The notes beneath the pieces were generated by a model, which was not told the DNA's origin, searched no databases, and was given only the letters and a program-made list of their open reading frames with translations. 44,846 nt of DNA, taken from NCBI GenBank assembly GCA_945889655.1, contig CAMDCH010000002.1, positions 1 through 44,846 of the forward strand. The letters are read 5' to 3'. The position numbers and the translations under genes were made by a program. This DNA is from a bacterium HR33. Its GTDB lineage: Bacteria > Gemmatimonadota > Gemmatimonadetes > Gemmatimonadales > GWC2-71-9. Every line of letters starts with the position of its first letter. The stretch's first letter is position 1. Below, piece by piece: positions 9,550-44,846 of the stretch.

Positions 9550-9631
9550 ACAACCCCCGGTCGAATCCGGCCGCCTGAGGTGCGGCCGCCACACCGGTAC
9601 TGACGCAATTTTCTCGCCAATCGCCTCCGAC

Positions 9632-23960: not shown

Positions 23961-24883
23961 GACGCGAGGTCCTTCTCAATCGCGTCGCAGAGCGAGGGGA
24001 GCTTCGCGAGCAGCCGTGGGTACGCGAGCCGCTTCACGGGCACCGCGGCGGCGACCGCGCTCGCAAGCCGGAACTGGTTGGCGAGCCGCTCGGGACCGGT
24101 GACGATCGTGTTGAACGTGTTCCGGACGGTTTCGATCATGGCGGCGGCAGGGTCGAGCCGGCGGATCGCGATCCGGGCCGAGGGCAGCGTGGGATCGGAG
24201 AGCACGTAGATCGCGCGCAATGGCGCAGCGCGACGGCTTGCCCGGTGTTGGTCGAGCGGCAGGACCATCTTGCTCGTTCCCGGGTTCATGCGAGTCCCCT
24301 CGCGCCCCCCCAGGACCGCACGCGACACCGCGGGAAAGAGCTTGATGCGGGGGACGCCGGCGTGGACCAGGAACCCGCCGCCGCCGCGCGGGGCGAGCGA
24401 GACGAGATCATCGGTCAGGACGGGGAACCCGCGCGCCAGCATCGCCGCGCCGAGCGTGGACTTGCCGTAGCCGGTGTCGCCCAGGAAGGCAACAGCGCCG
24501 CCATCGACCACCACGACCGTCCCGTGCAGCGGCTCACGGCCGAGTGCCAGGAGCGAAAATGACAGGACCTGGCTCAGCAGGTAGGTACTGAACGACTCTC
24601 GCGACGCCCTGCGGAGACGCCGATACTCGATGCGGCGGCCGTCCGGTGAAATCAGAAAATCGAAGAGGTTGGTCCAGCCGAGATACATGGTACCGTCCGC
24701 GAGCTGGCGGCAGCGGAACCAGTCGCGCGCGTTGGGAAGACGGGTGCCGCGGAGCGCGCCGGCGAAGCGGCGGCGCGGTGCGGGAACGAGCCTGACGGTG
24801 GGTACTGATACCCGCGACGCACGGGGGCACGGGAGGGCAAGCGGACTCTGAAGACCGAGGCCGTAGAGCCGGTACAGGCTCAG
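23957..24883 (-). CDS. HPr-kinase-like P-loop serine kinase (lasso-peptide tailoring kinase candidate)
   Basis: P-loop FLGDTGYGKSTLGAAMLARGFPVLTDDL. The N-terminal LYRLYGLGLQSPLALP resembles the start of HprK-like RiPP kinases. No ATG/GTG/TTG is available there, so the start is provisionally placed at the CTG at 24883, which overlaps the precursor TGA. The first ATG (M145 of the track ORF) would remove the N-terminal domain. Confidence 0.75.
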   Translation of the reverse strand: MSLYRLYGLGLQSPLALPCPRASRVSVPTVRLVPAPRRRFAGALRGTRLPNARDWFRCRQLADGTMYLGWTNLFDFLISPDGRRIEYRRLRRASRESFSTYLLSQVLSFSLLALGREPLHGTVVVVDGGAVAFLGDTGYGKSTLGAAMLARGFPVLTDDLVSLAPRGGGGFLVHAGVPRIKLFPAVSRAVLGGREGTRMNPGTSKMVLPLDQHRASRRAAPLRAIYVLSDPTLPSARIAIRRLDPAAAMIETVRNTFNTIVTGPERLANQFRLASAVAAAVPVKRLAYPRLLAKLPSLCDAIEKDLAS

Positions 24884-25038
24884 GAGTTGGAGCCCGACGC
24901 CCGCGTGGTAGGCTTGCGCGCACCGTCGGCCATGCTGCCCTTCTTTACCAGGGTGAGTGCACGCAGATCGCCGTGCACCACGAGGCGAGGGGCCTGGTAG
25001 GGACGTTTCGGATGCGCCAAAGACTTCCTGGGACTCAT
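24880..25038 (-). CDS. lasso-peptide precursor (52 aa: MSPRKSLAHPKRPYQAPRLVVHGDLRALTLVKKGSMADGARKPTTRASGSNS)
   Basis: Track ORF 24880..25083 trimmed to the ATG at 25038, which has GGAGGT 6 nt upstream and overlaps the cyclase stop (ATGA). The leader fits YxxPxLx3Gx5Tx (Y14, P17, L19, G23, T29). The predicted core is VKKGSMADGARKPTTRASGSNS. Confidence 0.75.
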   Translation of the reverse strand: MSPRKSLAHPKRPYQAPRLVVHGDLRALTLVKKGSMADGARKPTTRASGSNS

Positions 25039-26942
25039 GATCTGACCTCCATCTGGGAGCGACTGAAAAATACCCGTAGCCATGCCTCCAAGCCAAGCAG
25101 GTCAACCAGGTCCCACCCATCGGTGGCCTCTTTGCCCGCCAGTCCGGCGGCCATCCGGTCGACCGCCGGCTGAAGGCGACCGCCGTCCACGTAGCCCATC
25201 CTCACCCCCAGGCTACCCGGCCCCAGGCGGGCGCGAATTGCCGCCAGGTCCTGGGCCACGCCGTGGTTCGTGGCCTCGGTGAAGTCGGCCTTCCAGCGGC
25301 GCGCGCGCACCCGTTCCGGCAGGATGCCGCGCATCGCTTCCCTGAGTATGGCGCGCGGGACGCCTTCGTGATTCTGGACCTCGCCCGGGATCGCCATCAG
25401 GAACGCGAGCAAGTCGCGGTCCAGGAATGGGAACGCCGCCTCGAGCCCGTGCGACGCCGCGATCTTGTTGTTCCACTCCATGCACTGCACATGGTACTTG
25501 GACCGGGCTTCGAGGTACAGCGAGCGCGCCTGCGCCGAATGAAACCCGCTTCCCAGCATCGCCGGCCGGTCCGCATCCTTCAGTCCGCCGGCGAGGAACC
25601 GGTCCGAATACCAGGAGCGGGGACGCGCATCGGCAAAGAGCCGCCGCCGCACCCACTTCAGCGGCCCGACCAGCGCGTCCGGCGCGTGGTGGCGGAGCAG
25701 TTCCATCGGCAGGCGGCCGCGGAGCGTAGCCACTTCTTCCCTGCCGAACCACCGCAGGTACTCGCGCGTGTGGCTCCATGCCTTGCGCCAGGCGAAACGA
25801 CTCACGAGATCAACCAGGTACGCCGGCGAGAAGAGCACCTGGTCACCCCAGTGTCCCGAGAGCATCACCCGCGCACCCGCGCGCCCGGCGCGCGCGTCCA
25901 GCTCGCAGGTAACGCCCCACTGGTAATCGAGAAACGGCGCCTCGATGGCACCCACCTGCGTCTCGACCCCGGCTAGCGCACCCGCGTGCACTTCCATTGG
26001 AAAGCGCCCGATGGAGACGCCGTATTCGCGCTCGATTTCCTCGAGATACTCGCGCTCATCGGCGTCCGAACCCGTGGCACCGAGGTACGCGAAACCAAGC
26101 ACGGAGCCCGTTCGTAGCTTCTGCGCCTGGCAAAAGATGGACGATGAATCGAGCCCGCCGCTGGTGGAGACGGCGACCGGGTATGCAGATCGCACGCGTC
26201 GTGCCACCGCCTGGGCAAAGAGCTCCGCGAACGCATCGCGGTACTCCTCGAAGCGGCTAAGTCGAATGGCCGCCGAGGGATCGAAGTCCCAGTAGCGCCG
26301 TGCAACAGCGGCGTCCGTTGTGACGGTGACAACATGCGCCGGGACAACTGCGGAAATCCCTGCAAAGCACGTGACATCCTGCCGGTCTACGGGTCGAGCC
26401 CCTACCAGGAGGAAATCGGCCAATCCCTCGTCATCGGGCGCGGCGCGAATCTCGGGATGCGCCAGGAGGGCCTTGATCTCGGTAGCGAACGCGACGAACC
26501 GTTTGCCGCGGTGGTAGTAGAGCGGCCGGATCCCGATGGCGTCGCGCGCAAGGATGAGGCGGGCCCGTGCCGAGTCGTAGAGCGCGAGGGCGAAATCCCC
26601 GCTGAGATGGTCGACGAACGAGTCGCCAAGGCGAGCGTAGGCCGCGAGCACCACTCTCGCGTCGGTGCTGGATGACGACAGACCCAGCTTCGAGATCAGC
26701 TCAGGACGATTGTCGAGCCGGCCATCCCAGGCCAGCAGGAGGCCCTGCTCGTTGAGCGGCTGCCGTTCGCCGACCTCCTCGGGCGTGATCCACATGCGAC
26801 GGTGCGCGAAGCCGACCGCGCCCGCGATGCACCGGTCGCCGCCATCGGGACCGCGGTGGGCGAGCGTGGCGTCCATGCGTTCGAGGACGGCCGGCGACAG
26901 CGGAGCGCCGTCGGTATTCCACACTCCCGATATCCCGCTCAT
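25035..26942 (-). CDS. asparagine-synthetase-like lasso-peptide cyclase (C protein)
   Basis: Track ORF 25035..27350 trimmed to the ATG at 26942 (MSGISGVWNTDGAPL...). It has an N-terminal Ntn-amidotransferase-like domain and an AsnB-type adenylation domain (AVSTSGGLDSSSIF PP-loop). Confidence 0.9.
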   Translation of the reverse strand: MSGISGVWNTDGAPLSPAVLERMDATLAHRGPDGGDRCIAGAVGFAHRRMWITPEEVGERQPLNEQGLLLAWDGRLDNRPELISKLGLSSSSTDARVVLAAYARLGDSFVDHLSGDFALALYDSARARLILARDAIGIRPLYYHRGKRFVAFATEIKALLAHPEIRAAPDDEGLADFLLVGARPVDRQDVTCFAGISAVVPAHVVTVTTDAAVARRYWDFDPSAAIRLSRFEEYRDAFAELFAQAVARRVRSAYPVAVSTSGGLDSSSIFCQAQKLRTGSVLGFAYLGATGSDADEREYLEEIEREYGVSIGRFPMEVHAGALAGVETQVGAIEAPFLDYQWGVTCELDARAGRAGARVMLSGHWGDQVLFSPAYLVDLVSRFAWRKAWSHTREYLRWFGREEVATLRGRLPMELLRHHAPDALVGPLKWVRRRLFADARPRSWYSDRFLAGGLKDADRPAMLGSGFHSAQARSLYLEARSKYHVQCMEWNNKIAASHGLEAAFPFLDRDLLAFLMAIPGEVQNHEGVPRAILREAMRGILPERVRARRWKADFTEATNHGVAQDLAAIRARLGPGSLGVRMGYVDGGRLQPAVDRMAAGLAGKEATDGWDLVDLLGLEAWLRVFFSRSQMEVRS

Positions 26943-26957
26943 AGATTTGAGTATACC

Positions 26958-27254
26958 ATGCCCGTTCCCGTGATTGCCCCGCACACCACCGTCGTTTCCG
27001 CCGGCGAGCTGCTGTCCAGCGAGTTCGGCGAAGAGTTCATCATCCTGAACCTGAAGGACGGGATTTACTATGGGCTGGATCACGTCGGTGCCCGGGTGTG
27101 GACGCTCATCAAGCAACCGATGACCGTGGGCGCGGTGCGGGATGCGCTGGTGGCGGAGTATGAGGTGGACGTTGCCCAGTGCGAACGCGATCTCGTTGCG
27201 CTGCTCGAGGACCTGGTGACCAAGGGGCTGGTCGAGCTCCGGGCGGACGCCTGA
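26958..27254 (+). CDS. PqqD-family RiPP recognition element (lasso B1 protein)
   Basis: Track ORF trimmed to the ATG at 26958. ...GEEFIILNLKDGIYYGLDHVGARVWTLIKQPMTVGAVRDALVAEYEVDVAQCERDLVALLEDLVTKGLV is a typical PqqD fold signature. Confidence 0.85.
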   Translation: MPVPVIAPHTTVVSAGELLSSEFGEEFIILNLKDGIYYGLDHVGARVWTLIKQPMTVGAVRDALVAEYEVDVAQCERDLVALLEDLVTKGLVELRADA

Positions 27255-27685
27255 GCAAGCTCGCGAAGTTCTTTGGGCTGCCCGCGACCGACAAGTGGCT
27301 GCTCGTTCGCACGGCGTTCGTGATGACGCTGGTGCGGGTGGGACTGGCACTGATGCCCTTCTCGGCGCTGAAACGGCTGGTGGAGAGGGATAGAACCGGA
27401 ACCTCGGAGGGTCTGGCCGACCTTCCCGAGCGGGTTTCCTGGGCGATCGCCGTGCTCTCGTCGCGGGTCCCGGGAAAGAACACCTGCCTTGTCCAGGCCC
27501 TGACCGCCGACTCGCTGCTCCGTCGCGGTGGCTACCGGCCCACGCTGCGCATTGGCGTGGCGGGACGGAATCCGGGTGGGACCATCAAGGCCCACGCGTG
27601 GCTGGAGTGCGAAGGCCGAGTGATCACCGGCGGACTCGAGGACCTATCCAGCTACTCGGTGCTGACGTCGCCCGGACGGGGATGA
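27251..27685 (+). CDS. transglutaminase-like cysteine protease (lasso B2 leader peptidase)
   Basis: NTCLVQALTADSLLRRGGYRPTLRIGV...IKAHAWLECEGRVITG contains the Cys and His of the B2 catalytic site. The family-like N-terminus LSKLAKFFGLPATDKW begins at the CTG at 27251, which overlaps the B1 TGA. The alternative start is the track GTG at 27179 (76-nt overlap with B1). Confidence 0.72.
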   Translation: MSKLAKFFGLPATDKWLLVRTAFVMTLVRVGLALMPFSALKRLVERDRTGTSEGLADLPERVSWAIAVLSSRVPGKNTCLVQALTADSLLRRGGYRPTLRIGVAGRNPGGTIKAHAWLECEGRVITGGLEDLSSYSVLTSPGRG

Positions 27686-28782
27686 CCGAGGCGGTCGCCC
27701 GGATTCTCCGCGGCGAGGCCCCCGCATGGAGCGAGGTCGGCGCGACACCCGCCGCCTTTCTCGAATACTGCGAGCGGGAAGACCTGATTCCCCTCGTTCA
27801 TCACAACCTGCACAGTGGTTGGCCCGTGGAGGTCTCGGCGGCGCTGGAGCGCGCGGCCCGCGATGCCGCAGCCCGCGAGATGGTCCGGCGACAGGAAATC
27901 ACCCGCGTTCTCACCCTGCTCGACGAGGCCGGCATCCGGCCGATCGTCTTCAAAGGAACCGCCCTCGCCTATCTCGTCTATCCGGCGCCCGGACTTCGCC
28001 CGCGCAACGACACCGATCTTTTGATCCGCCGCGCTGACGTGGACCCAGCGCGCGCCGTTTTCGCGGCAACCGGATACGTAGAGCCCGCATACAGTGGTGA
28101 CGAGCTGCTCTTCCGGCAGTTTGAGGCGCAGCGGGAAGATTCTCTCGGTGTCCACCATGCGTTCGATGTCCATTGGGAGATCAGCACCCAGTCCGCCTTT
28201 GCGAACCTGCTCTCCTACGATGATCTCGCGAATTACAGCGTGCCGGCGCCGATGCTGGGGGCCGCCGCGCGAGCGGCGGGGCCCGTGGAGGCGCTGCTCA
28301 TCGCGTGCGTCCATCCAGCCATGCACCATCGCAATGAAGAACGGCTGATCTGGCTGTTTGACGTGCACCTGCTGGCGGGACGGCTCGCACCGGAGGAATG
28401 GAAACGGTTCAGCGCGACTGCCCTGTCACGAAAAACAGGAGTCGTATGCGCATACGCGCTGCGACATGCGCATGACCTGCTTGGAACCGCGATACCCCCT
28501 CACATCATCAACAATCTGGAGTCCGCAGCGGGCGATGAGCCAACCGCCGCCTACCTCGACCGGTCGCGCTCGTGGCGGCATGAGGTCGGTGCGAACATCC
28601 GCGGGCTTTCATCGTGGAGTGACCGGCTCGGCTTGCTGCGGGAGATCGCGTTTCCGCGGCCGAGCTACATACTAGAGAAGTACGAATGGAAGGACACGCT
28701 GCCGGCTCGGCTCGGACTACCGTGGCTCTACTTCAGGCGCGCGATGGAAGGGACCTGGAAGGTGGTGTCCGGGAAAAAATGA
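27682..28782 (+). CDS. nucleotidyltransferase-family protein of the type found in lasso/RiPP clusters
   Basis: Track ORF trimmed to the ATG at 27682, which overlaps the B2 stop (ATGA). IVFKGTALAYLVYPAPGLRPRNDTDLLI carries the G-x...D-x-D nucleotidyltransferase signature. Confidence 0.78.
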   Translation: MTEAVARILRGEAPAWSEVGATPAAFLEYCEREDLIPLVHHNLHSGWPVEVSAALERAARDAAAREMVRRQEITRVLTLLDEAGIRPIVFKGTALAYLVYPAPGLRPRNDTDLLIRRADVDPARAVFAATGYVEPAYSGDELLFRQFEAQREDSLGVHHAFDVHWEISTQSAFANLLSYDDLANYSVPAPMLGAAARAAGPVEALLIACVHPAMHHRNEERLIWLFDVHLLAGRLAPEEWKRFSATALSRKTGVVCAYALRHAHDLLGTAIPPHIINNLESAAGDEPTAAYLDRSRSWRHEVGANIRGLSSWSDRLGLLREIAFPRPSYILEKYEWKDTLPARLGLPWLYFRRAMEGTWKVVSGKK

Positions 28783-34933: not shown

Positions 34934-34961
34934 GCCCCCGAGTAGTTGGCGGGGGCTTTTT
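34934..34961 (+). terminator. intrinsic terminator
   Basis: GCCCCCG-agtagttgg-CGGGGGC followed by TTTTTCTTT. Confidence 0.65.
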
Positions 34962-35063
34962 CTTTGTACCCCCCGTCTGTAGCGGTTTCCCTGTTTGACA
35001 CGTCCCGGCGGTGGGGTCATGTTCTCCGGGCTTTGCCTCCTGGTCTCGATCGAGGAGCCGCAC

Positions 35064-36017
35064 ATGGAACGTGCCGCGCCTATCCCAGCTCAACTCGCAC
35101 ACCTCCGGGCCTCTGACGCCGCCGGAGCCCTCGTCGCAGGCCAAAGCATCCTCCTCACCGCCGTGGCACTCTGGCTGTCGTCGCGACCGGAGACGCTGCC
35201 CTGGCTCGCGGGCCAACTGCTGCTCGCGCTGGCCCTGGTGCAATGGTTCTCACTCCTCCACGAATGCGGGCACGAGACGCTCTTCCTGACGCGGCACTTG
35301 CATCTCCCGCTGGGCCATCTTGCCGCGGTCTTCTCGCTCATCCCGTTCTACAACTGGAAGCGGGTGCACGCGCGGCACCACAAGTGGACGGGATGGCAGG
35401 ACGTGGACCCGACGACGGCGGCGCTCGTCCCGCGCCCCCTGGGACGCGCCGAGCGCACGCTCGTGAACGTGTGCTGGAAGTACTGGATCCCGCTTTTCTC
35501 CGTGCTGTACCGCCTGAACAATTTCTGGAACTGGCCACGACTGCGCGGGCTCTTCGCGAAGGCGCGAGACCGGCGGCTCCTCGGGCTGAACCTGCTCGCC
35601 ATGCTCGGCGTCTATGCCGCGCTCGTCTGGTTCGTCGGGCCTGTCCTCCTGCTCCGGATGACCGGCCTCGCGGTGCTCCTCTCGCTCGTGGCGGAAGACC
35701 TCATTCTGCTCAGCCAGCACACGCACGTCCCGCAGCAGGTGAGCCACGGCGAGCCGGTGCGTCCCTTCCCCACCGTCGAGCAGGAAGTCTTTACGCGGTC
35801 GCTCGCCTTCCCGGGCTGGCTCTCGTCGCTGCTACTGCACATCGACGCGCACGAGCTGCACCACATGTATCCCTTCGTTCCCGGCTACCGGCTCTCCGGC
35901 ATCTCGTACGAGACGGAGAACGAGATCCACTGGTGGACGTGGGTTCGGCGGGCGCGCGCGATGCCGGGAGAGCTCTTTCTCTTCCATAACCGCCTGGAAA
36001 CGGGCGCCGACATCTGA
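35064..36017 (+). CDS. membrane fatty-acid desaturase family protein
   Basis: Track ORF trimmed to the ATG at 35064 (GAGGAG upstream). Three His boxes: HECGH, HARHH and HELHH. Confidence 0.88.
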   Translation: MERAAPIPAQLAHLRASDAAGALVAGQSILLTAVALWLSSRPETLPWLAGQLLLALALVQWFSLLHECGHETLFLTRHLHLPLGHLAAVFSLIPFYNWKRVHARHHKWTGWQDVDPTTAALVPRPLGRAERTLVNVCWKYWIPLFSVLYRLNNFWNWPRLRGLFAKARDRRLLGLNLLAMLGVYAALVWFVGPVLLLRMTGLAVLLSLVAEDLILLSQHTHVPQQVSHGEPVRPFPTVEQEVFTRSLAFPGWLSSLLLHIDAHELHHMYPFVPGYRLSGISYETENEIHWWTWVRRARAMPGELFLFHNRLETGADI

Positions 36018-36078
36018 GACGCGCGACCTGACCCGGCTCGATCCGCTCGTCTGCGCGCTCTTCCTCATCGTCGCGTTC

Positions 36079-36615
36079 GTGCTCGCAGGCCTGGCGCACT
36101 CGGCGTGGCTGCGGGCGCCGGTCTCGCGCCGACTGGCCATTCCCCTCGACGGCGGGGCGCGCGTCCGCGGACGCCGCGTCTTTGGCGACAACAAGACCGT
36201 GCGCGGCTTCGCGGTCATGATCCCCGCGACATCGATCGCGTTCGTCATCCTCGCGACCCTCGTGCGCCGCATCGCGCCCGGCCTGGCCGATGGACTCTGG
36301 CCCCTCACGACCGTCGAAATGGCCGCGCTTGGCGCCTGGGCCGCGTTCGGGTTCATGCTCGGCGAGCTCCCCAACTCGTTCGTCAAGCGCCAGCTCGATA
36401 TCGCGCCGGGCGCCGCGCCTCGCGGACCCGCCGCCAGAACCGTGGGCTTTCTCATCGACCGGTATGACTCCATCCTCGGCATGCTTGCCATCGTGACGCT
36501 CGTCGCCGGCGCGCCGTGGGCCACCTGGGGGTACGTAGCCCTGCTGGGACCGACGATCCATTGGTCGTTCAGCGTCCTGCTCTATCGGCTCGGCGTCAAG
36601 GCGCGCCCCGCATGA
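36079..36615 (+). CDS. CDP-archaeol synthase-like (CarS/DUF46 family) integral membrane cytidylyltransferase
   Basis: VFGDNKTVRGF, GELPNSFVKRQL and FLIDRYDSILG match the conserved FGxxKTxRG / NSFxKR / DxxD blocks of the CarS family. The frame stays open upstream with hydrophobic sequence, so the true start may lie before the GTG at 36079 (for example CTG at 36028). Confidence 0.72.
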   Translation: MLAGLAHSAWLRAPVSRRLAIPLDGGARVRGRRVFGDNKTVRGFAVMIPATSIAFVILATLVRRIAPGLADGLWPLTTVEMAALGAWAAFGFMLGELPNSFVKRQLDIAPGAAPRGPAARTVGFLIDRYDSILGMLAIVTLVAGAPWATWGYVALLGPTIHWSFSVLLYRLGVKARPA

Positions 36616-39305
36616 CGACGACCGCCGGGCGACCGCCCACCTTCACTGCGGCGGCGGAACCATTCTGCGTTTCCCTCCTCGCGGACACCGATCGCACCCT
36701 GGTCGGCGGCAAGGCGCATGCGCTGGCTGCCATGCTTCGGCTCGGTGTACGGGTGCCGGCGGGTTTCGTCATCACCACCCGCGCGTTCGCGGCCCATCTC
36801 GACCAACACGCGCTGGCAGATCGCATCGCTCAACTCTGCGACGGGTTGACCCCGCGCGACACCGCCCATATGAAGGACGTGTCAGCGACCATCGCGTCGG
36901 TCGTGCGCAGCGCTTCGCTCGCATCCGGGCTGCGCGACCAGGTTCTGCATGCCGCACAGCCCCTCTTGAGGAATGGGCCGGTGGTGGTGCGAAGCTCCGC
37001 GGTGGGTGAAGACTCGAGCACCGGATCCTTTGCCGGGCAGCTCGACTCCGTACTGCACGTCGCCTCGCAGGCCGATCTCGAGCGCGCGCTGCTCACCTGC
37101 TGGGCGTCCTATTGGTCCGAGCGCTCCCTGTTCTACCGGGTGGCGCGCGGCGTGGCGCTGGACGGCATGGGGGTGGTGATACAGTCGCAGGTGGCCGCGC
37201 GCGCGTCGGGAGTGATGTTCAGCGATGCGAGGGCCGGCGCCATCATGGTCGAATATGGACCAGGCCTCGCCGATGCACTGGTCGCCGGTACCATCGATCC
37301 CGGGCGGATCACCATAGATCCCGCGACGCGCCGCGTCACGCGGTTTGCCGCATCCGCGGAGCGCGCCGTCGACGAGCTGGTGTTGTCGGCGCCATCCATC
37401 GCGGCGCTCGCCAATGCCGGGTCCGGTCTCGAGCGCCTGTTCGGCGCTCCCCAGGACATTGAGTGGGCGATGGATTCCGGCGGTACGCTCTTCGTGGTGC
37501 AATCGCGGCCGATCACCGCGCCCGTGCAGTGGCCGCACCAACCGGCGTCCTCCGGGCCGGAAGCGCCGCCGGCGCATTGGTCCAACGCGAACGTCAACGA
37601 GAACTTTCCCGACCCGATCTCGCCCCTGCTCTACTCCATCGCGACGGCAGGGTACACCAGCTACTTCAGCAATCTCGCGCGAGCCCTTGGCATCGCGCCG
37701 GCTCGCATCGCCGCCCTGGCGCCGGCCTTCCGCCAGATCATCGGCGCCCACGGCGCGCGGATGTACTACAACCTGACGAACATCCACGCCATCCTGCGTC
37801 TTGCTCCATTTGGCGACGCATTGGCCGCGTCGTTCGACAGCTTCGTCGGGGCGGACGGGCCCGCGACAGCCGCCTCTCCTCGTCGTGGACTGGTGACGAA
37901 CGCGGTGGAAGCCGCTGTCGTTGCGATGAAGGCGTTCTGGCAGTACCGCTCCCTCCCAGCGCGCATTCGCCGGTTCGAGCGCACGGTTGACGCCTTCGCC
38001 GCGCGTACGCACCCCGAGCGCCTGAAGGACGCGCCGCTCGAGCAGCTCGGCGGCGCGCTGGATGATTTCATGGACATCCGCTGCCACCGGTGGCTGGACG
38101 CGTCGCTCGCCGATGCGGCGGCCATGGTGTGCTACCGGGCGCTTCAACGACTGCTCGCGCATGCCTACCCGGCCGGGGAGCGTGGCGCCGTCCATACCTC
38201 GCTGCTCACGGCGATCCCCGACGTGGTCAGCGCCGAGCCTGTTTACGCGCTCTGGGCGCTCTCCCGCGTCATCCGCGAGGATGAGGCATTGTCCCGACTC
38301 TTCCAGGCCGAGGGCCCGGAAGTCATCCTCTCCGCCCTGGCGAACGATCCACGGTTCACCGCGTTTCAGAAAGCGTTCGCCGAGTACCTGGAGCGTTGGG
38401 GCTTTCGCTGCTCTTCCGAGCTGATGCTCACGGTGCCGAGCTTCCAGGAGGATCCCGCACCTCTCTTCGATATGCTGCGCGCCTACGCCCGGCTGGACGG
38501 CGACTCGCCGGTGGAGGCGCTGGCGCGCCAGGCCGCGGAGCGCGAGGCGCTGACCGCGCGCCTGGCCGAAGAGCTCGCGTGGCGGCCGGTCTTTGGATGG
38601 CTCCCTTTCCCGACCTGCGCCCAGCTGCTCCGCGTGCTCCTGCCGTGGACCCATGCGGCCATTCGGTTCCGCGAGCGCGCTCGGCTCAAGCAGGCGCTCC
38701 TCTACAGCCGGTGCCGGCGCATTGCACTCGCTCTGGGCGAGCGACTGTCCGCGCGCGGCGTGCTTCCCACCCGCGACCACGTGTTCTGGCTGAGCGTCGA
38801 CGAGCTGCGCGAACTCGCCGCGGGAAGCGCCATGTACCCGCGGGCCACCCGTGAGCTCGTCGAGACCCGCGCCCGCGCGCACGCGGTGCTCACGGCAACG
38901 ACGCCCCCCGACGCCTTCGTCCTCGCCCGGGGCGAGTACCTGCCCGTCGGCTCGGTAGCGCCGGCAGTGGCGCGTGAGGCCTCCACCACGCTCACCGGCA
39001 CGCCCGCATGCGGCGGCCGCGTCACCGGGCGCGCGACCGTGCTGCGCGACGTCACCGAGGCGGCGCGGCTCGCGCGCGGCGACATCCTGGTCACCAGGCA
39101 GACCGACCCGGGATGGGCCCCGGCGTTCTTCCTGATCGCCGGGCTCGTGATCGAGCGCGGCGGCATGCTCTCCCACGGGGCGATCATCGCCCGCGAGTTC
39201 GGCATTCCCTGCGTCGTTGCGGTACGCGGCGCGACGGAAGCCATTCCCGATGGCGCCACCATCACGGTCGATGGAGACCATGGCAACGTCCAGCTCGCCG
39301 ATTGA
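36612..39305 (+). CDS. PEP-utilising-enzyme family phosphotransferase with rifampin-phosphotransferase-like domain order (N-terminal ATP-grasp, long middle domain, C-terminal swivel His domain)
   Basis: Track ORF trimmed to the ATG at 36612 (ATGA overlap). N-terminus GGKAHALAAMLRLGVRVPAGFVITT (PPDK_N-like). C-terminus GDILVTRQTDPGWAPAFFLIAGLVIERGGMLSHGAIIAREFGIPCVV (mobile His domain). No C-terminal PEP/pyruvate TIM-barrel domain. Confidence 0.86.
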   Translation: MTTTAGRPPTFTAAAEPFCVSLLADTDRTLVGGKAHALAAMLRLGVRVPAGFVITTRAFAAHLDQHALADRIAQLCDGLTPRDTAHMKDVSATIASVVRSASLASGLRDQVLHAAQPLLRNGPVVVRSSAVGEDSSTGSFAGQLDSVLHVASQADLERALLTCWASYWSERSLFYRVARGVALDGMGVVIQSQVAARASGVMFSDARAGAIMVEYGPGLADALVAGTIDPGRITIDPATRRVTRFAASAERAVDELVLSAPSIAALANAGSGLERLFGAPQDIEWAMDSGGTLFVVQSRPITAPVQWPHQPASSGPEAPPAHWSNANVNENFPDPISPLLYSIATAGYTSYFSNLARALGIAPARIAALAPAFRQIIGAHGARMYYNLTNIHAILRLAPFGDALAASFDSFVGADGPATAASPRRGLVTNAVEAAVVAMKAFWQYRSLPARIRRFERTVDAFAARTHPERLKDAPLEQLGGALDDFMDIRCHRWLDASLADAAAMVCYRALQRLLAHAYPAGERGAVHTSLLTAIPDVVSAEPVYALWALSRVIREDEALSRLFQAEGPEVILSALANDPRFTAFQKAFAEYLERWGFRCSSELMLTVPSFQEDPAPLFDMLRAYARLDGDSPVEALARQAAEREALTARLAEELAWRPVFGWLPFPTCAQLLRVLLPWTHAAIRFRERARLKQALLYSRCRRIALALGERLSARGVLPTRDHVFWLSVDELRELAAGSAMYPRATRELVETRARAHAVLTATTPPDAFVLARGEYLPVGSVAPAVAREASTTLTGTPACGGRVTGRATVLRDVTEAARLARGDILVTRQTDPGWAPAFFLIAGLVIERGGMLSHGAIIAREFGIPCVVAVRGATEAIPDGATITVDGDHGNVQLAD

Positions 39306-39939
39306 CGCGGCCACGGCCTACCTGCGGGAGCGCTATGCGTCTCCCCTTTTCGTCGTGCTGGCCGCGCTGCTCACCGCGACAGGGTTCGCCATTTCACCCG
39401 GAGAGGCAGGCCCGGCGGCGCTCTTCCGGTCCCTGGCGATCGCCTTCCTGCTCGTGCTCTCCTTCCGCATCGGCGACGACCTGGCAGACGCGCCACGCGA
39501 CCGCGTGCGTCATCCCGATCGCGTGCTCGTCCGCGCGCCGGAGCGCGGCCCCTTCATCGCCCTGCTCGCAGCCACGACGGCCCTCGCCGTCGCAATCATC
39601 GCCACCGCGCCACAACCCTTCGCGCGGCTCATTGCCATCGGCGGGGCCGCACTGGTGCTCGGCGCCTGGTATGCCGCGCGTGGCGACGCAAAGCCGCTCG
39701 TCGCCGCCCACGTCGTTCTCGCGAAATACCCCGTCATCGCTCTCGCCGCGGCGCCGGCGTTCCCGCGCAGCGTGACCGGATCCGTCGTGGCGATACTCGC
39801 CGCGCTCTATGCCGTCCTGTGCGCGTACGAAACGTTCCACGACCCGGTGCTCCGCGGTTCGCCGGCCGCACGCCGTCTCGCCCTGCTCGAGGCGGTGCTG
39901 GTCGCTCCCCTGCTCCTGCTCGGAGGACTCCTTCGGTGA
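39280..39939 (+). CDS. polytopic membrane protein, short UbiA-prenyltransferase-like
   Basis: FRIGDDLADAPRDRVRHPDR resembles the first Asp-rich motif of UbiA enzymes (NDxxDxxxD...R..RP). It has about 6-7 hydrophobic helices. I see no clear second Asp-rich motif. Start is the ATG at 39280 or 39271, overlapping the previous gene. Confidence 0.5.
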   Translation: MATSSSPIDAATAYLRERYASPLFVVLAALLTATGFAISPGEAGPAALFRSLAIAFLLVLSFRIGDDLADAPRDRVRHPDRVLVRAPERGPFIALLAATTALAVAIIATAPQPFARLIAIGGAALVLGAWYAARGDAKPLVAAHVVLAKYPVIALAAAPAFPRSVTGSVVAILAALYAVLCAYETFHDPVLRGSPAARRLALLEAVLVAPLLLLGGLLR

Positions 39940-40925
39940 CCGCTACCGCTTCACCCCGCGAGCGTACGCCGCTTTCGCCGAGCGGACCGGCGCCGGACGC
40001 GTTTGAGACCGTGCCCTGCTATCTCTGCGGCTCCTCCGAGTGCACGCCCTTCATCGAGGCCGAAGACGACCTCACCGGCAAGCCGGGCCGCTTCCACTTC
40101 GTGACGTGCACGAGGTGCGGACTGCGGTATCAGAGTCCCCGCCTTTCGGTGGAACACATCAAGGCGTACTACGACGACGAATACATCGCGCACCGGAAGA
40201 AGAGCGACTGGGGAGTACTCACGGGCTTCTTCAACTGGGCGATGGACCGCCACGACCGGCAGAAGGATGCGATCGTGCGCCGTTACCTGGCGCTCAACGC
40301 CCATAGCCGAGTGCTCGACGTGGGGTGCGCGGTAGGAACGTTCCTGCAAAAGATGCGTGCGCGATATGGCACGCATGTGGCGGGCGTGGATTTCAAGGAT
40401 CTCCGCGCGCACCCGTCGCTGGCGGGCGTCGACTTTCGCTGCGGACTGTTCTACGAGCAGGATTTCGGCCAGGAGCGATTCGACCTGATCACCATGTGGC
40501 ACTTTCTCGAGCACGACTACGACCCGATGCGGACCCTCGCCACAGCCCGTGAGCTGCTCGCGGCGAACGGACGGCTGGTGATCGAGGTGCCGAGGCTCGA
40601 CAGCCTCACCTTCCGGATGTATCGCCACCGCTGGCCCGGCCTCCAGGCGCCGCAGCACACCGTGTTGTACGACAAGCGGGCGCTGCTCGCCGCCGTCGAC
40701 AAGGCGGGGCTCGAGGTGGAAGCGTTTCTGCCCTATGGAGCCTTCCCGGCGTTCTTCTACTTCTTCGCCGGCGCCGCGTTCACGATGCTGCGGGGGCGCG
40801 GCTTGAATCTCTCCAGGGCGATCTACCCCTACTTCGTCGGGCAGCTCCTCTTCGCCCCCCTCCTCGCGTTCGAGAAGCAGCTCAACTTTGCCATGCAGAC
40901 TGTCGTCTGCCGGAGGCGCGCATGA
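39936..40925 (+). CDS. class I SAM-dependent methyltransferase with N-terminal Cys4 zinc-ribbon
   Basis: The GTG at 39936 overlaps the preceding TGA. CYLCGSSEC...CTRCGLRY is a zinc ribbon. VLDVGCAVGTFL is SAM motif I. Confidence 0.84.
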   Translation: MTATASPRERTPLSPSGPAPDAFETVPCYLCGSSECTPFIEAEDDLTGKPGRFHFVTCTRCGLRYQSPRLSVEHIKAYYDDEYIAHRKKSDWGVLTGFFNWAMDRHDRQKDAIVRRYLALNAHSRVLDVGCAVGTFLQKMRARYGTHVAGVDFKDLRAHPSLAGVDFRCGLFYEQDFGQERFDLITMWHFLEHDYDPMRTLATARELLAANGRLVIEVPRLDSLTFRMYRHRWPGLQAPQHTVLYDKRALLAAVDKAGLEVEAFLPYGAFPAFFYFFAGAAFTMLRGRGLNLSRAIYPYFVGQLLFAPLLAFEKQLNFAMQTVVCRRRA

Positions 40926-41740
40926 CCCACGCTGCGACTCCCGTCGCCGAGCGCGCACCGTCCGCGCTGCACGACACCGGTGGCACGAGCCTGAAGACCC
41001 GGATCCGCCTTGCCGCCACCATGGCCGTGCTCAGCGCCGGCGCGCTCGTCATGCTCATCGCGGCCATTCCGACGCTCGGGCTCGCGCGGCGGTTCTATTC
41101 GGAGGTCATCGGCCGGGCGACCGGGAATGCGATCCTCCGCCTGTGGGGCCTGCACTACGTCGTGCACCGTTCGCGGCCGCTTCCGGCGGGCCAGGCGGTC
41201 TACATCAGCAATCACACGTCCACCATCGATCTCTTCCTGCTCATCGCCCTCGCACTGCCGCGCACCCGGTTCTTCCTGGCCGGTTTCCTCCGCAAGCTCG
41301 TTCCGCTCGGCGTCGTCGGTTACCTCATCCGCATCTTCTGGACGGTGCCGCAGCAGTTTCCAGAGCTGCGGCGGCGCATCTTTGCGCGCGCCGATCGCAT
41401 CCTGCGCCGCAGCGGCGATTCGGTGTATCTGAGCCCCGAGGGCAAGCGGGTCGTCAGCGGCGAGATGGGCCACTTCAACAAGGGCTCCTTCCATCTCGCC
41501 ACCAGCCTCCGCGCTCCGATCATCCCCATCTACTTCGCCATTCCGCAGGACATCAATCCCGGCATGGGCTTCGACGCGAAACCCGGGCGGATCGACATCT
41601 GGTTCCTCCGCCCCATCGAGACGCGCGACTGGCGGCTCGAGGACCTGGAAGAAAATCGTGACGCCGTGCGCGACCTCTTCGTACGCGTGCACGACGCGGT
41701 ACGCGCGACCGGGCGGCCGGCGGCGGAGCTGACCGGATGA
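40922..41740 (+). CDS. lysophospholipid/1-acyl-sn-glycerol-3-phosphate acyltransferase family (AGPAT/PlsC-like)
   Basis: N-terminal TM helix. HX4D motif in YISNHTSTIDLF. LSPEGKR block. ATGA overlap at both ends. Confidence 0.87.
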   Translation: MTHAATPVAERAPSALHDTGGTSLKTRIRLAATMAVLSAGALVMLIAAIPTLGLARRFYSEVIGRATGNAILRLWGLHYVVHRSRPLPAGQAVYISNHTSTIDLFLLIALALPRTRFFLAGFLRKLVPLGVVGYLIRIFWTVPQQFPELRRRIFARADRILRRSGDSVYLSPEGKRVVSGEMGHFNKGSFHLATSLRAPIIPIYFAIPQDINPGMGFDAKPGRIDIWFLRPIETRDWRLEDLEENRDAVRDLFVRVHDAVRATGRPAAELTG

Positions 41741-43548
41741 CGCACGACGGTCGCACGCTGGTCGACCTGCTGCGCACTCGCGCGCAGGGCGACGAGCGCC
41801 GCCTCGGCTACACATTCCTGGTGGACGGCGAGCGCGAGGGCGCCACGCTGACCTACGAGGACCTCGACCGCCGTGCGCGCGCCATCGCCGTCCTGCTGGC
41901 CGATCGGGGGGTGCGGTCCGGGGATCGCGCGCTGCTCCTCTACCCCCCCGGACTCGATTTCATCGCCGCGTTCTTCGGTTGCCTGTACGCCGGCGTTGTC
42001 GCGGTCCCGTTGTACCCGCCGCACCCGTCGCAGATCGCGCGCGCGCTCCCCCGGCTCCTCGCGATCACCGCGGACGCGGAGGCAGGCGTGGTGCTCTGCA
42101 CCGGGGCGGTGGCAGCGATGGCCGCCGACGTCTCGCGGCTGGCGCCGGCCCTGCACGGGCTCAGCTGGCTCGCCACCGACACGCTCGCCGATGGCTCGGC
42201 GGAGTGGCGCGAGCCCGACATCGACGGTGATTCGCTGGTCTTCCTTCAGTACACGTCGGGATCGACCGCGGCTCCGAAAGGCGTGATGGTCAGCCACGCC
42301 AACCTGCTCCACAACCTTGGCTACGCCTGCTACGCCGCCGAAAACGACCGCACCACCATCGCCGTGTCGTGGCTCCCCGTCATTCACGACATGGGGCTCA
42401 TCGAAGGCGTGCTCCAGCCGGTGTACGCCGGCTACCCGACCTATCTCATGGCGCCGGCATCCTTTCTTCAGCGCCCCAGTCGCTGGCTCGAGGCCATCAC
42501 GCGCTACCGCGCGACAAACAGCGGCGGGCCCAACTTCGCCTACGACCTTTGCGTCCGAAGGATCGCGCCGGCCGGGCGTGAGGCGCTCGATCTCTCATCA
42601 TGGCGCGTGGCATACAACGGTGCCGAACCGATCCGGCGTGATACGCTGGTCGCGTTTCACGCTGCGTTTCGTCGCTCGGGTTTCCGCTGGAAGGCCTTCT
42701 ATCCGGTCTACGGCCTCGCCGAGGCCACGCTCGTGGTGTCGACCGGCCGAAGGAACTATGAGCCCGTGGTCTGCGAGGCTGACGCCGATCGCCTCGCGGA
42801 GACGGCGACGCTGGCGGCGGGCGCCGGGAATCCGCGCGTCGTGCCCCTGGTGTCGAGTGGACCGGCCTTGTACGGCACCCGGGTCCTCATCGTCGACCCC
42901 GAGTCGCTCGAACGCTGCCCGCCCGATCGCGTCGGGGAGATCTGGATCGATTCGCCGAGCGTGGCGCAGGGGTATTGGCGTCGCCCGGCCGAAAGCGCCG
43001 AGTGCTTCCAGGCCCGCACCAGTGATGGCGACGGGCCGTTTCTCCGCACCGGCGACCTGGGGGTGCTGCGCGACGGCGAGCTGTTCGTCACCGGGCGGCT
43101 GAAGGATCTGCTCATCGTGCGCGGCTACAAGCACTATCCGCAGGACCTCGAGCTCACCGCCGAGCGGCAGCATGAGATCATCCGGCCCGGCTGTGTGGCG
43201 GCGTTCGCGATCGAAGTCGGCGGCCATGAAACGGTGGCCATCCTCGCCGAAGTGAACCAGCGCGGACTCTCGGCAGACCACCACGAACGCGAAGCGACGC
43301 TCGCGCAGGTCGTCACGTCCGTGCGGACCGCCGTTGCTGACCAGCACGGCATCCAGCTCGCCGCGGTTTCGCTGATCGGTATTGGCGCCCTTCCGAAGAC
43401 ATCGAGCGGGAAGCTCCGGCGCCAGGCCTGTCGTGCAGCATTTCACGATGCCTCGCTGGACGAGCTGACGCGGTGGACGCTGCCGGTGTTCGTAGACCAC
43501 ACCGACGACGCGCCATCCATCAGTCGAGCGCTTCGCACCGGATCATGA
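41737..43548 (+). CDS. fatty acyl-AMP ligase / acyl-CoA synthetase family adenylating enzyme (FadD32-like)
   Basis: LGYTFLVDGE...LTYEDLDRRARAIAVLL...FLQYTSGSTAAPKGVMVSHANLLHN...GRLKDLLIVRGYKHYPQDLE, as in FAAL-type enzymes. Confidence 0.92.
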   Translation: MTHDGRTLVDLLRTRAQGDERRLGYTFLVDGEREGATLTYEDLDRRARAIAVLLADRGVRSGDRALLLYPPGLDFIAAFFGCLYAGVVAVPLYPPHPSQIARALPRLLAITADAEAGVVLCTGAVAAMAADVSRLAPALHGLSWLATDTLADGSAEWREPDIDGDSLVFLQYTSGSTAAPKGVMVSHANLLHNLGYACYAAENDRTTIAVSWLPVIHDMGLIEGVLQPVYAGYPTYLMAPASFLQRPSRWLEAITRYRATNSGGPNFAYDLCVRRIAPAGREALDLSSWRVAYNGAEPIRRDTLVAFHAAFRRSGFRWKAFYPVYGLAEATLVVSTGRRNYEPVVCEADADRLAETATLAAGAGNPRVVPLVSSGPALYGTRVLIVDPESLERCPPDRVGEIWIDSPSVAQGYWRRPAESAECFQARTSDGDGPFLRTGDLGVLRDGELFVTGRLKDLLIVRGYKHYPQDLELTAERQHEIIRPGCVAAFAIEVGGHETVAILAEVNQRGLSADHHEREATLAQVVTSVRTAVADQHGIQLAAVSLIGIGALPKTSSGKLRRQACRAAFHDASLDELTRWTLPVFVDHTDDAPSISRALRTGS

Positions 43549-44846
43549 GCTCCAGCGCCGTCCGGGCGGCCCGGGACCTCGAATCCCGACTCGCGAGCGT
43601 CGTAGCTACCACGCTTGGCGTGCCCGTCGACCTGGTGCACTCCGACACGCCGTTCACCCTCCTCGGCATGGACTCGCTGGGCGCGGTGGAGCTCACGGGG
43701 GCGGTCGAGAGCGCGCTCGGCGTCGCCCTGCCGCTGACCGCCGTGCACGAGTATCGCGACGTCGCCTCGCTGGCCCGGTTCATCGAGCTGGGCGTCGCGC
43801 CGCCCGCGCGCATGTCCACGCTCGAGCGGATGCGGGCGGACGCCGTGCTCCCCAGCGACATCGCGCCGCCGCGCGGAGCCCCGTCGCTGACCCGGGATGC
43901 CCGCGACCTGCTGCTTACCGGCGCCACCGGCTTCGTCGGCGCGCACCTGCTCGGCGCGCTGCTGGACGCGTCCCCCGTCACCGTGCACTGCCTCGTGCGC
44001 GGCACCGACGCCGCGCAGCGCGTGCGCGCGAACCTCGAACGGTATGGCCTGTGGACGCACGACACGTCGCGCCGCGTGCGCATCGTCAACGGCGATCTGA
44101 CCCAACCGATGTTCGGCCTCGGCACGGCGGAGTACGCTGCGCTGGCCCGGCGCATCGGCGCCATCTATCACGGCGGTGCGGCAGTGAACTGGGTGCACGG
44201 GTACGAGGGCCTCCGCGACGCCAACGTCCTGGGTACGCGCGAAGTCCTCCGGTTCGCCTGCCACGACGCTGCCAAGGCGGTGCACTTCCTCTCCAGTCTT
44301 GGCGTCTGCTATTCCACCCGGGCACCGCGGACGGTGAATGAGACGGCCGACGTCTTCGCGCATGCCGACGGGCTCCACCTGGGGTACGCACAGAGCAAGT
44401 GCGTGGCCGAGGAGCTGGTGCGAAGCGCCGGCGCGCGCGGACTCCCGGTGACGATCCTGCGGCCGGCGTTGGTGTCGGGTCACAGCGTGACCGGCGCATC
44501 CAATACCGACGATCTCCTCGCCCGCTTTATCGCAGGGTGCATCCAGATGCGTGCGGCGCCCGATCTCGACTGGCGGGTGGATTGCGTGCCGGTGGACCAT
44601 GTCGCCCGCGCGGTCGTCGTGCTGTCACGCGGCCACGAGAAGGGCACCGCCATCGCGCATCTCGCGAACGCGCGCGCGCGACACTGGCGGGAGTGCATCC
44701 TCTGGATGCGTCTCTGCGGCTACGACATCGAGCTCCTGCCCTATCGCGAGTGGATGCGCGTGCTCCGGGCGAGCGCCGGCGCGGATCACCCGCTGCATGC
44801 GCTGCGGCCCTTTTTCGTTCACGCACTCCCCGGCGAAGACCACCTC
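43545..44846 (+). CDS. acyl/peptidyl carrier protein fused to a thioester reductase (NAD-binding SDR) domain; runs off the window edge
   Basis: Not in the ORF track (no stop in the window). The ATG at 43545 overlaps the FAAL stop (ATGA). Carrier Ser in LLGMDSLGAVEL. Reductase Rossmann motif LLTGATGFVGAHLL and YAQSK (YxxxK). Confidence 0.87.
   Translation, partial: MSSSAVRAARDLESRLASVVATTLGVPVDLVHSDTPFTLLGMDSLGAVELTGAVESALGVALPLTAVHEYRDVASLARFIELGVAPPARMSTLERMRADAVLPSDIAPPRGAPSLTRDARDLLLTGATGFVGAHLLGALLDASPVTVHCLVRGTDAAQRVRANLERYGLWTHDTSRRVRIVNGDLTQPMFGLGTAEYAALARRIGAIYHGGAAVNWVHGYEGLRDANVLGTREVLRFACHDAAKAVHFLSSLGVCYSTRAPRTVNETADVFAHADGLHLGYAQSKCVAEELVRSAGARGLPVTILRPALVSGHSVTGASNTDDLLARFIAGCIQMRAAPDLDWRVDCVPVDHVARAVVVLSRGHEKGTAIAHLANARARHWRECILWMRLCGYDIELLPYREWMRVLRASAGADHPLHALRPFFVHALPGEDHL

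Follow-up and report, generated by a model that had tools for sequence, protein, structure and literature searches.

In the archaeal ether-lipid pathway, digeranylgeranylglyceryl phosphate (DGGGP) synthase, CarS and archaetidylserine synthase act successively, and in phytol salvage UbiA-type transferases receive phytyl diphosphate from two kinases acting in turn (VTE5 and VTE6). We know of no settled account of how non-isoprenoid ether lipids arise in aerobic bacteria, or of most producers of the widespread environmental ether lipids that serve as climate proxies; nor do we know of an understood mechanism for the bond-forming step of ElbD, the multidomain protein of the elb ether-lipid route of Myxococcus xanthus. 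The elb route is thought to pass via fatty aldehyde or alcohol, and split versions as well as versions beside head-group genes are known. In two reports, the domain order of ElbD is given as reductase, ligase, carrier and acyltransferase, and the reductase is described as an N-terminal FAR1-like domain (PMC9131029; bioRxiv 10.64898/2026.06.23.733905); the second of these also records split elbD and elb-like clusters beside cytidine diphosphate (CDP)-alcohol phosphatidyltransferases in Acidobacteriota and Poribacteria sponge symbionts. The locus described here lies in a 44,846-nucleotide (nt) stretch of contig CAMDCH010000002.1 from bacterium HR33 (Gemmatimonadota; assembly GCA_945889655.1), referred to below as the window, and consists of eight genes on the same (+) strand, 3' of a terminator hairpin.

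Together with homologous loci, these genes define a cassette that very probably encodes a dedicated pathway to a non-canonical phospholipid. A fuller reading, in which the cassette is self-contained and horizontally mobile and its non-canonical phospholipid most probably bears a fatty-acid-derived, ether-linked alkyl chain, is regarded as evenly balanced, and a specific alkyl-diphosphate route to the ether is put forward tentatively. The observations bearing on these readings are gene structure, protein domains, catalytic motifs, the fold of one membrane protein, synteny across phyla, gene-fusion patterns and the recurrent pairing of two of the genes. In these terms the locus is a lipid-biosynthesis operon built from known enzyme families, with a realistic chance of new chemistry. 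The features are as follows:

34934..34966, + strand: terminator-like hairpin with U-run (GCCCCCG-N9-CGGGGGC, then UUUUUCUUU)
35064..36017, + strand: G1, membrane di-iron desaturase/hydroxylase-like protein of 317 amino acids (aa) (PF00487, 67.8 bits)
36079-36615 as annotated, 36028..36615 with an upstream CTG, + strand: G2, CarS-like membrane cytidine triphosphate (CTP):lipid-phosphate cytidylyltransferase (PF01864, 47.3 bits)
36612..39305, + strand: G3, ATP-dependent phosphotransferase of the rifampin phosphotransferase (RPH)/PigC type (PPDK_N, 202 bits; PEP-utilizers, 91 bits)
39280..39939, + strand: G4, short UbiA/DGGGP-synthase-like integral membrane transferase of 219 aa (PF01040, 20.7 bits; motif; fold)
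39936..40925, + strand: G5, class I S-adenosylmethionine methyltransferase (Methyltransf_23, 91.9 bits)
40922..41740, + strand: G6, AGPAT/PlsC-type acyltransferase (PF01553, 60.4 bits)
41737..43548, + strand: G7, fatty acyl-AMP ligase (FAAL) (AMP-binding, 233.9 bits)
43545..44846, continuing past the window end, + strand: G8, carrier plus thioester reductase of the non-ribosomal peptide synthetase (NRPS) type (PP-binding, 55.8 bits; NAD_binding_4, 213 bits; TIGR01746, 304.9 bits)

Coordinates, start and stop codons and junctions of G1 to G8 were read directly from the window sequence. Direct reading and folding bore out the first-pass annotation of eight same-strand genes after a terminator, linked by five 4-nt overlaps and one of 26 nt, and support its view of them as a single expression unit of lipid enzymes. 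The hairpin (folding energy -20 kcal/mol, z = -2.6) closes the upstream unit and sets the 5' boundary of the operon; a simple terminator scan, whose loop limit of 3-8 nt the 9-nt loop exceeds, returned nothing at 34934-34966. A GGAGG stands 7 nt upstream of the G1 ATG. The 4-nt ATGA/GTGA overlaps are at 36612, 39936, 40922, 41737 and 43545, and the 26-nt overlap is that of G3 with G4, which recurs in an independent gene call on an identical contig (L143) and in a homologue of 78% identity (L144). No stop codon for G8 occurs up to the window end (44846). All eight domain calls of the earlier annotation hold in Pfam and NCBIfam, seven above the Pfam gathering score; the UbiA call for G4 falls below it (20.7 vs 34.2 bits) and is supported by a conserved motif and the predicted fold.

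The only annotated gap, of 61 nt, separates G1 from G2. Members of the G2 family begin with a conserved helix whose coding sequence lies, in the window, 5' of the annotated GTG. Where homologues have their ATG, the alignment places a CTG (36028); judged from this, the true gap is probably about 10 nt and the 61-nt gap illusory. Translation may begin at this rare CTG start (36028-36078); otherwise the protein of this organism has a shortened N-terminus. In L144, an insertion of ~150 nt (6590-6760 of that locus), flanked by inverted repeats agtggagtgtgtcg ... cgacacactccact, directly follows the ATG start codon of the CarS-like gene and has the appearance of a small mobile or repetitive extragenic palindrome (REP)-like element.

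The end of the operon, which the first-pass annotation had proposed to locate downstream, was traced by way of homologues. The only other contig with an identical G4 protein (L143) stops at the same base as the window, and none was found that extends the window; a look-up of the FAAL protein returned no record. The 3' end was deduced from homologues of ~80% (L001) and ~78% (L144) identity and from the more distant L003 and L081. In all four, the full-length G8 orthologue (887-933 aa) carries a C-terminal kinase domain of the aminoglycoside phosphotransferase (APH) type (PF01636), whose HxDFNxRN catalytic loop and DWE motif are kept across 36 aligned G8 homologues; comparison of the APH region with solved structures by sequence gave no match. 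Usually 3' of the G8 orthologue is a CDP-alcohol phosphatidyltransferase gene (PF01066; G9), which in L144 overlaps it by 4 nt and whose best NCBIfam matches are archaetidylserine synthase and PssA, both below cut-offs. L003 has an additional second desaturase. The genes after the cassette are unrelated (nadC and a GGDEF regulator in L001, purA in L144). Judged by these relatives, the full unit is nine genes, sometimes ten, of which the window holds the first eight. The fused kinase and the CDP-alcohol phosphatidyltransferase of the homologues fit the earlier guess at an ether-linked, alkyl-phosphate or CDP-activated lipid.

To establish distribution, family members were collected from proteins and genomes. 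A large protein collection contains 2206 G2-family members (E <= 1e-3), the top 120 of which share at least 61% identity with the protein of the window. A scan with the G2 alignment, using one genome per species, gave 59 loci, all of them (59 of 59) in metagenome-assembled genomes (MAGs); the G5 alignment, run against species-representative genomes, recovered at least 590 confirmed matches, and a second G5 scan, with proteobacterial seeds, 214. Every locus long enough for judging contained the same cassette in the same order, G1-G2-G3-G4-G5-G6-(G7)-G8-(G9), in Acidobacteriota, Gemmatimonadota, Planctomycetota, Myxococcota, Nitrospinota, Nitrospirota and Beta-/Gammaproteobacteria. The arrangement is far beyond chance: over 130 distinct loci, drawn from several phyla, repeat the identical gene order. 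The set of nine (sometimes ten) genes is sharply delimited and present in at least several hundred species from soil, freshwater and marine phyla.

Carriers in the Acidobacteriota include Thermoanaerobaculia, Vicinamibacterales/gp6, Pyrinomonadaceae, Solibacteraceae, Bryobacteraceae and others; in the Gemmatimonadota, Gemmatimonadaceae and Longimicrobiales; in the Planctomycetota, Pirellulales and other members; and in the Myxococcota, Myxococcaceae, Archangiaceae, Polyangium and Nannocystaceae. Nitrospinaceae, Nitrospiria and Binatia are further carriers, as are, among the Beta-/Gammaproteobacteria, Rubrivivax, Sideroxydans, Massilia, Thiobacillaceae, Woeseiaceae and Chromatiales. Nearly all are MAGs. 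Restriction of the cassette to uncultured bacteria was considered and rejected when the scan with proteobacterial seeds found isolates; the isolate carriers are Polyangium fumosum DSM 14668, P. jinanense SDU13, two further Polyangium strains, Massilia glaciei B448-2 and the Nannocystaceae strain ST9. A conserved neighbourhood beyond the cassette was likewise rejected, flanking genes being common within lineages only and not between phyla. The window proteins are ~64-77% identical to those of Gemmatimonadaceae and ~45-67% to those of Acidobacteriota. This closer relationship to Gemmatimonadaceae, together with flanks shared at lineage level only, indicates that the cassette is a discrete, horizontally moved unit. 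Two whole cassettes in opposite orientation, one apparently broken by frameshifts, are present on a Gemmatimonadaceae contig (CAWBKI010000013.1; L085 and L086), and a Nitrospiria MAG has two copies (L169 and L172).

Gene presence was tabulated for 49 loci with full flanks. G1, G3, G5 and G6 were present in 49 of 49, G2 in 47, the reductase and kinase in 44, the FAAL in 30 and G9, within reach, in 22. The ORF between G3 and G5 diverges fast and is often missed by tblastn; one with the motif R..DDxxDxxxD was found there in 47 of 55 loci, the motif being invariant in all 47. The invariant core is the desaturase, the RPH-like kinase, the UbiA-like protein, the methyltransferase and the acyltransferase. 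In versions of the cassette that lack the FAAL (every proteobacterial version seen, together with several in other phyla), the reductase-kinase follows directly after the acyltransferase, and the carrier was also missing in those FAAL-less versions whose match coordinates were listed. FAAL and carrier are dispensable, the FAAL being an accessory part. In a Pirellulales subgroup, G7 and G8 are both missing and another PEP-utilising gene, the second of the locus, takes their place.

The activation and reduction proteins resemble those of polyketide synthase (PKS) and NRPS systems. Among PDB entries, G7 comes closest to 7r7e (E 9e-162), whose deposited name is 'Polyketide synthase', and next to 3kxw (E 5e-134), with FAALs of the FadD32/FadD28 type ranking after both (FadD32, E 1e-92 to 1e-103); the NCBIfam FAAL subfamilies match at E 1e-131, below cut-offs (438 vs 775). 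G8 exceeds the cut-off of the NRPS-type terminal thioester reductase family (TIGR01746, 304.9 vs 213.35 bits) and has a carrier serine (GMDSL), a Rossmann motif (GATGFVG) and YAQSK (YxxxK); its nearest solved structure is MxaA (4u7w, E 7e-80), which we take to be a reductase yielding alcohol. Genome miners commonly score a FAAL with a carrier-thioester reductase as NRPS-like. It is nevertheless highly improbable that the locus is a secondary-metabolite cluster in which these NRPS-like parts make a phosphorylated lipid signal or antibiotic and not a bulk membrane lipid. The PKS/NRPS origin of the nearest solved relatives (MxaA and the PKS FAAL), the action of RPH and PigC relatives on secondary metabolites and the patchy distribution, suggestive of horizontal gene transfer, speak for such a cluster, but five of the nine proteins (CarS-like, UbiA-like, AGPAT, CDP-alcohol transferase and membrane desaturase) belong to mainly membrane-phospholipid families, the cassette contains no condensation or ketosynthase domain and no exporter, and its gene order and sequences are conserved across phyla to an extreme that is unusual for specialised metabolites.

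G6 scores 60.4 bits against a gathering score of 23 for PF01553 and has an N-terminal membrane anchor and the motifs NHTSTID (HX4D) and PEGKR (PEGxR). Its relatives are free-standing or fused N-terminally to a ligase, as in the acyltransferase-ligase fusion of L002. The best 150 representative relatives are nearly all free-standing proteins of ~250 aa, with a few N-terminal acyltransferase fusions of ~800 aa; none of the 150 has the length expected of an ElbD-type multidomain protein.

The first-pass annotation had described G6 to G8 as a split ElbD, and the four domain families of M. xanthus ElbD are indeed present (PF00501, PF00550, PF07993 and PF01553, in G7, G8 and G6). The rest of the comparison is less close. 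The cassette order is acyltransferase, ligase, carrier-reductase-kinase, and the fusions seen are AGPAT-FAAL and carrier-reductase-APH, unlike the order in ElbD; the reductase is of the NRPS type (TIGR01746, nearest MxaA) and not FAR1-like; and a kinase domain, absent from ElbD, is fused to it. None of the RPH-like, UbiA-like, CarS-like, methyltransferase and desaturase partners is part of elb, and no counterpart of ElbA, ElbB (HAD), ElbC or ElbE (NAD-dependent epimerase) was found in or beside the cassette in more than 130 loci examined. The likeness behind the term 'split ElbD' goes no further than a common list of parts. This bears on the possibility that the operon is an ElbD-type pathway in pieces, with G6 to G8 forming 1-O-alkylglycerol lipids from fatty aldehyde or alcohol by the mechanism of ElbD and the other genes activating and decorating them (CDP, head group, desaturation, methylation). 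Such a pathway is quite unlikely. The common domain families, the reported split elbD genes with CDP-alcohol-transferase neighbours (bioRxiv 10.64898/2026.06.23.733905) and the L002 fusion agree with it; against it stand the differences in domain order and reductase type, the lack of ElbB, ElbC and ElbE homologues and of ElbD-length relatives noted above, the dispensability of ligase and carrier beside invariant RPH-like and UbiA-like genes, and the fact that it leaves no role for the fused kinase, G3 or G4.

Among the remaining proteins, G1 has three intact His boxes (HECGH, HARHH and HELHH) and, in NCBIfam, weakly matches the Delta5 desaturase DesA. Almost all homologous cassettes begin with it; it is at the 3' end in L138 and is divergently transcribed in three myxobacterial loci. 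A role as a plasmanyl desaturase of the CarF/PEDS1 type was considered and is unsupported, PF00487 being the sole match. G2 passes the family profile (PF01864, 47.3 bits vs a gathering score of 22) and falls short of the NCBIfam CarS equivalog NF003114 (64.5 bits vs a cut-off of 148); the G2 family profile matches a single solved structure, CarS (5guf), and the GDxKTxxG, SFxKR and DxxD motifs, which bind CTP and metal, are kept. G5, the best-conserved protein of the cassette (55-77% identity across phyla in two alignments), has an N-terminal four-Cys zinc ribbon and a hydrophobic C-terminal tail, with weak PDB matches to MitM, phosphoethanolamine N-methyltransferase and UbiG.

The domains of G3 are ATP-grasp, central substrate and swivelling His, and its nearest solved structures are rifampin phosphotransferases (5hv2, 5fbs and 5hv1, E about 1e-71). 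The family shows the PPDK_N, RPH-domain and swivelling-His-domain architecture, and Rph_4th (PF27448) is found on G3 homologues and on the identical protein of L143. In these respects it is like RPH and the prodigiosin ligases PigC and RedH, with which it shares the three-part architecture; its GGMLSHGA block aligns with the RPH swivel domain (GGMLSHGAIIARE with the equivalent block in the 5hv2 alignment). Equivalog cut-offs are not reached for RPH (NF041857, 332 bits vs 999) or RedH (312 vs 1350), and that for PigC is likewise missed. Unlike these enzymes, G3 belongs to a lipid operon, with translational coupling to the CarS-like and UbiA-like genes, and its substrate is presumably a lipid alcohol, lipid phosphate or aldehyde.

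G4 has the motifs R..DDxxDxxxD (DDLADAPRD in the window), K-Y-P and ExxxD, the last at the second Asp-rich position with E in 46 of 47 sequences and D in 41 of 47, and ~7-8 long helices within its 219 aa, compared with the nine of a full UbiA architecture. An AlphaFold model, built from a 30-sequence alignment, is very confident, with a mean predicted local distance difference test score (pLDDT) of 93.9 and a predicted template-modelling score (pTM) of 0.89. The best PDB matches of this model by Foldseek are the archaeal DGGGP synthases 6m31 and 7bpu (TM 0.61-0.65); lower matches are UbiA homologues (4od4 and the 4tq series) and the membrane phosphoribosyltransferase 8j8j, with similar scores for soluble prenyl synthases. 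On the model, G4 is called UbiA-like and is not classed as a UbiA member, because the E-values are modest and the protein is shorter than canonical UbiA enzymes.

Outside the cassette, UbiA-type and RPH-like genes recur as neighbours. In a Bdellovibrionales locus (L004) that also encodes DUF3419, P450, AMP-binding and GNAT proteins, UbiA overlaps the RPH-like gene by 4 nt (pair at 9123-12691). UbiA is directly 5' of the RPH-like gene in six Rhodobacteraceae loci (L006, L008, L010, L011, L012 and L019; ~9100-12600), with the isolate Oceaniglobus indicus among the Rhodobacteraceae that have the pair, and a Phycisphaerae locus (L014, ~9100-12600) has a full-length UbiA followed by an RPH-like gene. 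A cluster in a proteobacterial MAG (L007, 988-12634) is analogous to the cassette with non-orthologous parts: two RPH-like genes, UbiA, CarS-like, CDP-alcohol transferase, a methyltransferase of the PEMT/ICMT family and an MMPL transporter. CarS-like and CDP-alcohol transferase genes adjoin outside the cassette in L007 and also in L127. We know of no function for the recurrent UbiA/RPH-like two-gene module. The recurrent pairing, as a matter of gene context, suggests that the RPH-like phosphotransferase and the UbiA-like transferase may work together, and it is the strongest evidence for this; the same neighbourhoods suggest that the CarS-like protein with the CDP-alcohol transferase, and the methyltransferase, may share the same functional theme. 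Full-length RPH-like homologues were also seen in MAGs of Methanomassiliicoccaceae and other archaea (L009, L018, L021, L023 and L024).

These observations can be arranged into a pathway that assigns a role to every conserved protein, and in which the FAAL (G7) would adenylate a fatty acid and load it onto the G8 carrier domain, and the MxaA-like thioester reductase of G8 would release it as a fatty alcohol. The APH-type kinase fused to the reductase would phosphorylate the alcohol to an alkyl phosphate, to which the RPH-type G3 would add a second phosphate, giving an alkyl diphosphate, or it would otherwise phospho-activate the lipid. With that donor, the UbiA/DGGGP-synthase-like G4 would alkylate an acceptor of the glycerol-phosphate type, forming the ether, and the AGPAT (G6) would then acylate the free hydroxyl. 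The CarS-like G2 would turn the lipid phosphate into a CDP derivative, the PssA/archaetidylserine-synthase-like G9 would attach a serine-type head group, and the desaturase-like G1 and the methyltransferase G5 would tailor chain or head group. What each enzyme acts on, in which order they act, whether an ether bond forms and which head group is added are all predictions. Persistence of the reductase-kinase fusion in cassettes without ligase and carrier argues that the kinase acts on the product of the reductase. That two phosphorylations would be needed is suggested by this persistence, by the second RPH-like gene that replaces the reductase-kinase in the Pirellulales subgroup and by the two RPH-like genes of L007.

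The scheme can be compared with the two described pathways with which this account began. Relatives of three consecutive enzymes of the archaeal ether-lipid pathway are present (G4 by its model, G2 and G9), although all three score under the curated equivalog cut-offs. The cassette contains no geranylgeranylglyceryl phosphate synthase, glycerol-1-phosphate dehydrogenase or isoprenoid genes and has an ester-forming AGPAT, and its chain is seemingly derived from a fatty acid via reduction, unlike the isoprenoid chain of archaea. The logic of phytol and polyprenol salvage is also alike, a lipid alcohol being phosphorylated twice and then passed to a transferase of the UbiA superfamily, with one enzyme of the CdsA/CarS superfamily. 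Unlike in phytol salvage, the cassette kinases are of unrelated families (APH type and RPH type) and the fatty alcohol would be made in situ. No description of this gene combination was found in the literature covered, which did not extend to all journals, so that a prior description is possible; in the closest report found (bioRxiv 10.64898/2026.06.23.733905), searches of the main text turned up no mention of UbiA, pyruvate-type or phosphotransferase genes. The mix of fatty-acid reduction with archaeal-type CarS-like and UbiA-like proteins and a phosphotransferase, from which the first-pass annotation had suggested an undescribed membrane-lipid pathway, is confirmed as a mix.

Several points weigh against the alkyl-diphosphate ether route or parts of it. 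The main chemical objection concerns the donor: for the carbocation-like chemistry of UbiA enzymes, saturated primary alkyl diphosphates are poor electrophiles, and we know of no enzyme that uses one. The Foldseek E-values for G4 are weak (3.5e-3 to 8e-3), and the protein, at 219 aa vs ~280 aa in canonical UbiA, scores under the Pfam gathering threshold and shows ExxxD where the second DxxxD would stand. G3 could instead be a kinase that supplies the substrate of the CarS-like enzyme, or it could be a PigC-like condensing enzyme; G2 shares its superfamily with CTP-dependent polyprenol kinases and could be a kinase and not a CDP-lipid synthase; and G5 may act on either chain or head group. G2 and G9 are missing from some loci, the APH domain and G9 lie outside the window and are deduced from homologues of 78-80% identity, and the product, like each step leading to it, is predicted.

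The same enzymes could also make a glycerol-free or hybrid phospholipid with the alkyl phosphate (or a diol phosphate, if G1 hydroxylates) as its backbone. The CarS-like enzyme would CDP-activate this backbone, G9 would couple a head group to it and the AGPAT would acylate a free hydroxyl, while G4 would add an ordinary prenyl group from the polyprenyl diphosphate pool of the cell and G3 would phosphorylate another hydroxyl. This is a rather unlikely product. The conserved reductase-kinase fusion is consistent with it, as are the occurrence of CarS-like/CDP-alcohol transferase neighbours outside the cassette and the membership of hydroxylases in the desaturase family (G1 has NCBIfam matches to CrtR and GntB), and a donor drawn from a pool would explain loci L007 and L121, which have UbiA, RPH-like and CarS-like genes without the reductase. 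However, an enzyme that CDP-activates simple alkyl phosphates is not known, the AGPAT motifs are those for acceptors of the lysophosphatidate type, the tight coupling of G3 with G4 is less well explained and an isoprenoid-supply gene is absent from the cassette.

Elsewhere in the window, genes on both strands at 22323-28782 encode an ABC exporter, a 387-aa protein without a family match, an asparagine-synthase-like protein (771 aa) and an NTP_transf_5 protein, a combination that recalls clusters for lasso peptides and other ribosomally synthesised and post-translationally modified peptides (RiPPs). An atypical kinase of the ABC1/UbiB type (7873-10269, 798 aa) and an aminotransferase-HAD fusion protein (12841-15090, 749 aa) have no evident link to the operon.

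The cassette joins bacterial fatty-acid reduction to archaeal-type lipid enzymes, and the recurrent RPH-type/UbiA-type pairing suggests that UbiA enzymes may obtain their donors in a general way that has not been described. It is possible, if doubtful, that many phyla make ether lipids by archaeal logic with fatty-acid chains, two kinases yielding an alkyl diphosphate as the UbiA donor, followed by CarS-like CDP activation and a serine-type head group. If true, this would be a new, oxygen-independent chemistry of ether-bond formation. It would, moreover, offer a candidate origin for the non-isoprenoid alkyl glycerol ethers found in soils and sediments, over whose producers and enzymes there is debate, and these could include the precursors of branched tetraethers, Vicinamibacterales, Pyrinomonadaceae, Solibacteraceae and Bryobacteraceae being among the carriers. 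Culturable carriers such as Polyangium spp. and Massilia glaciei make the product and its chemistry testable.

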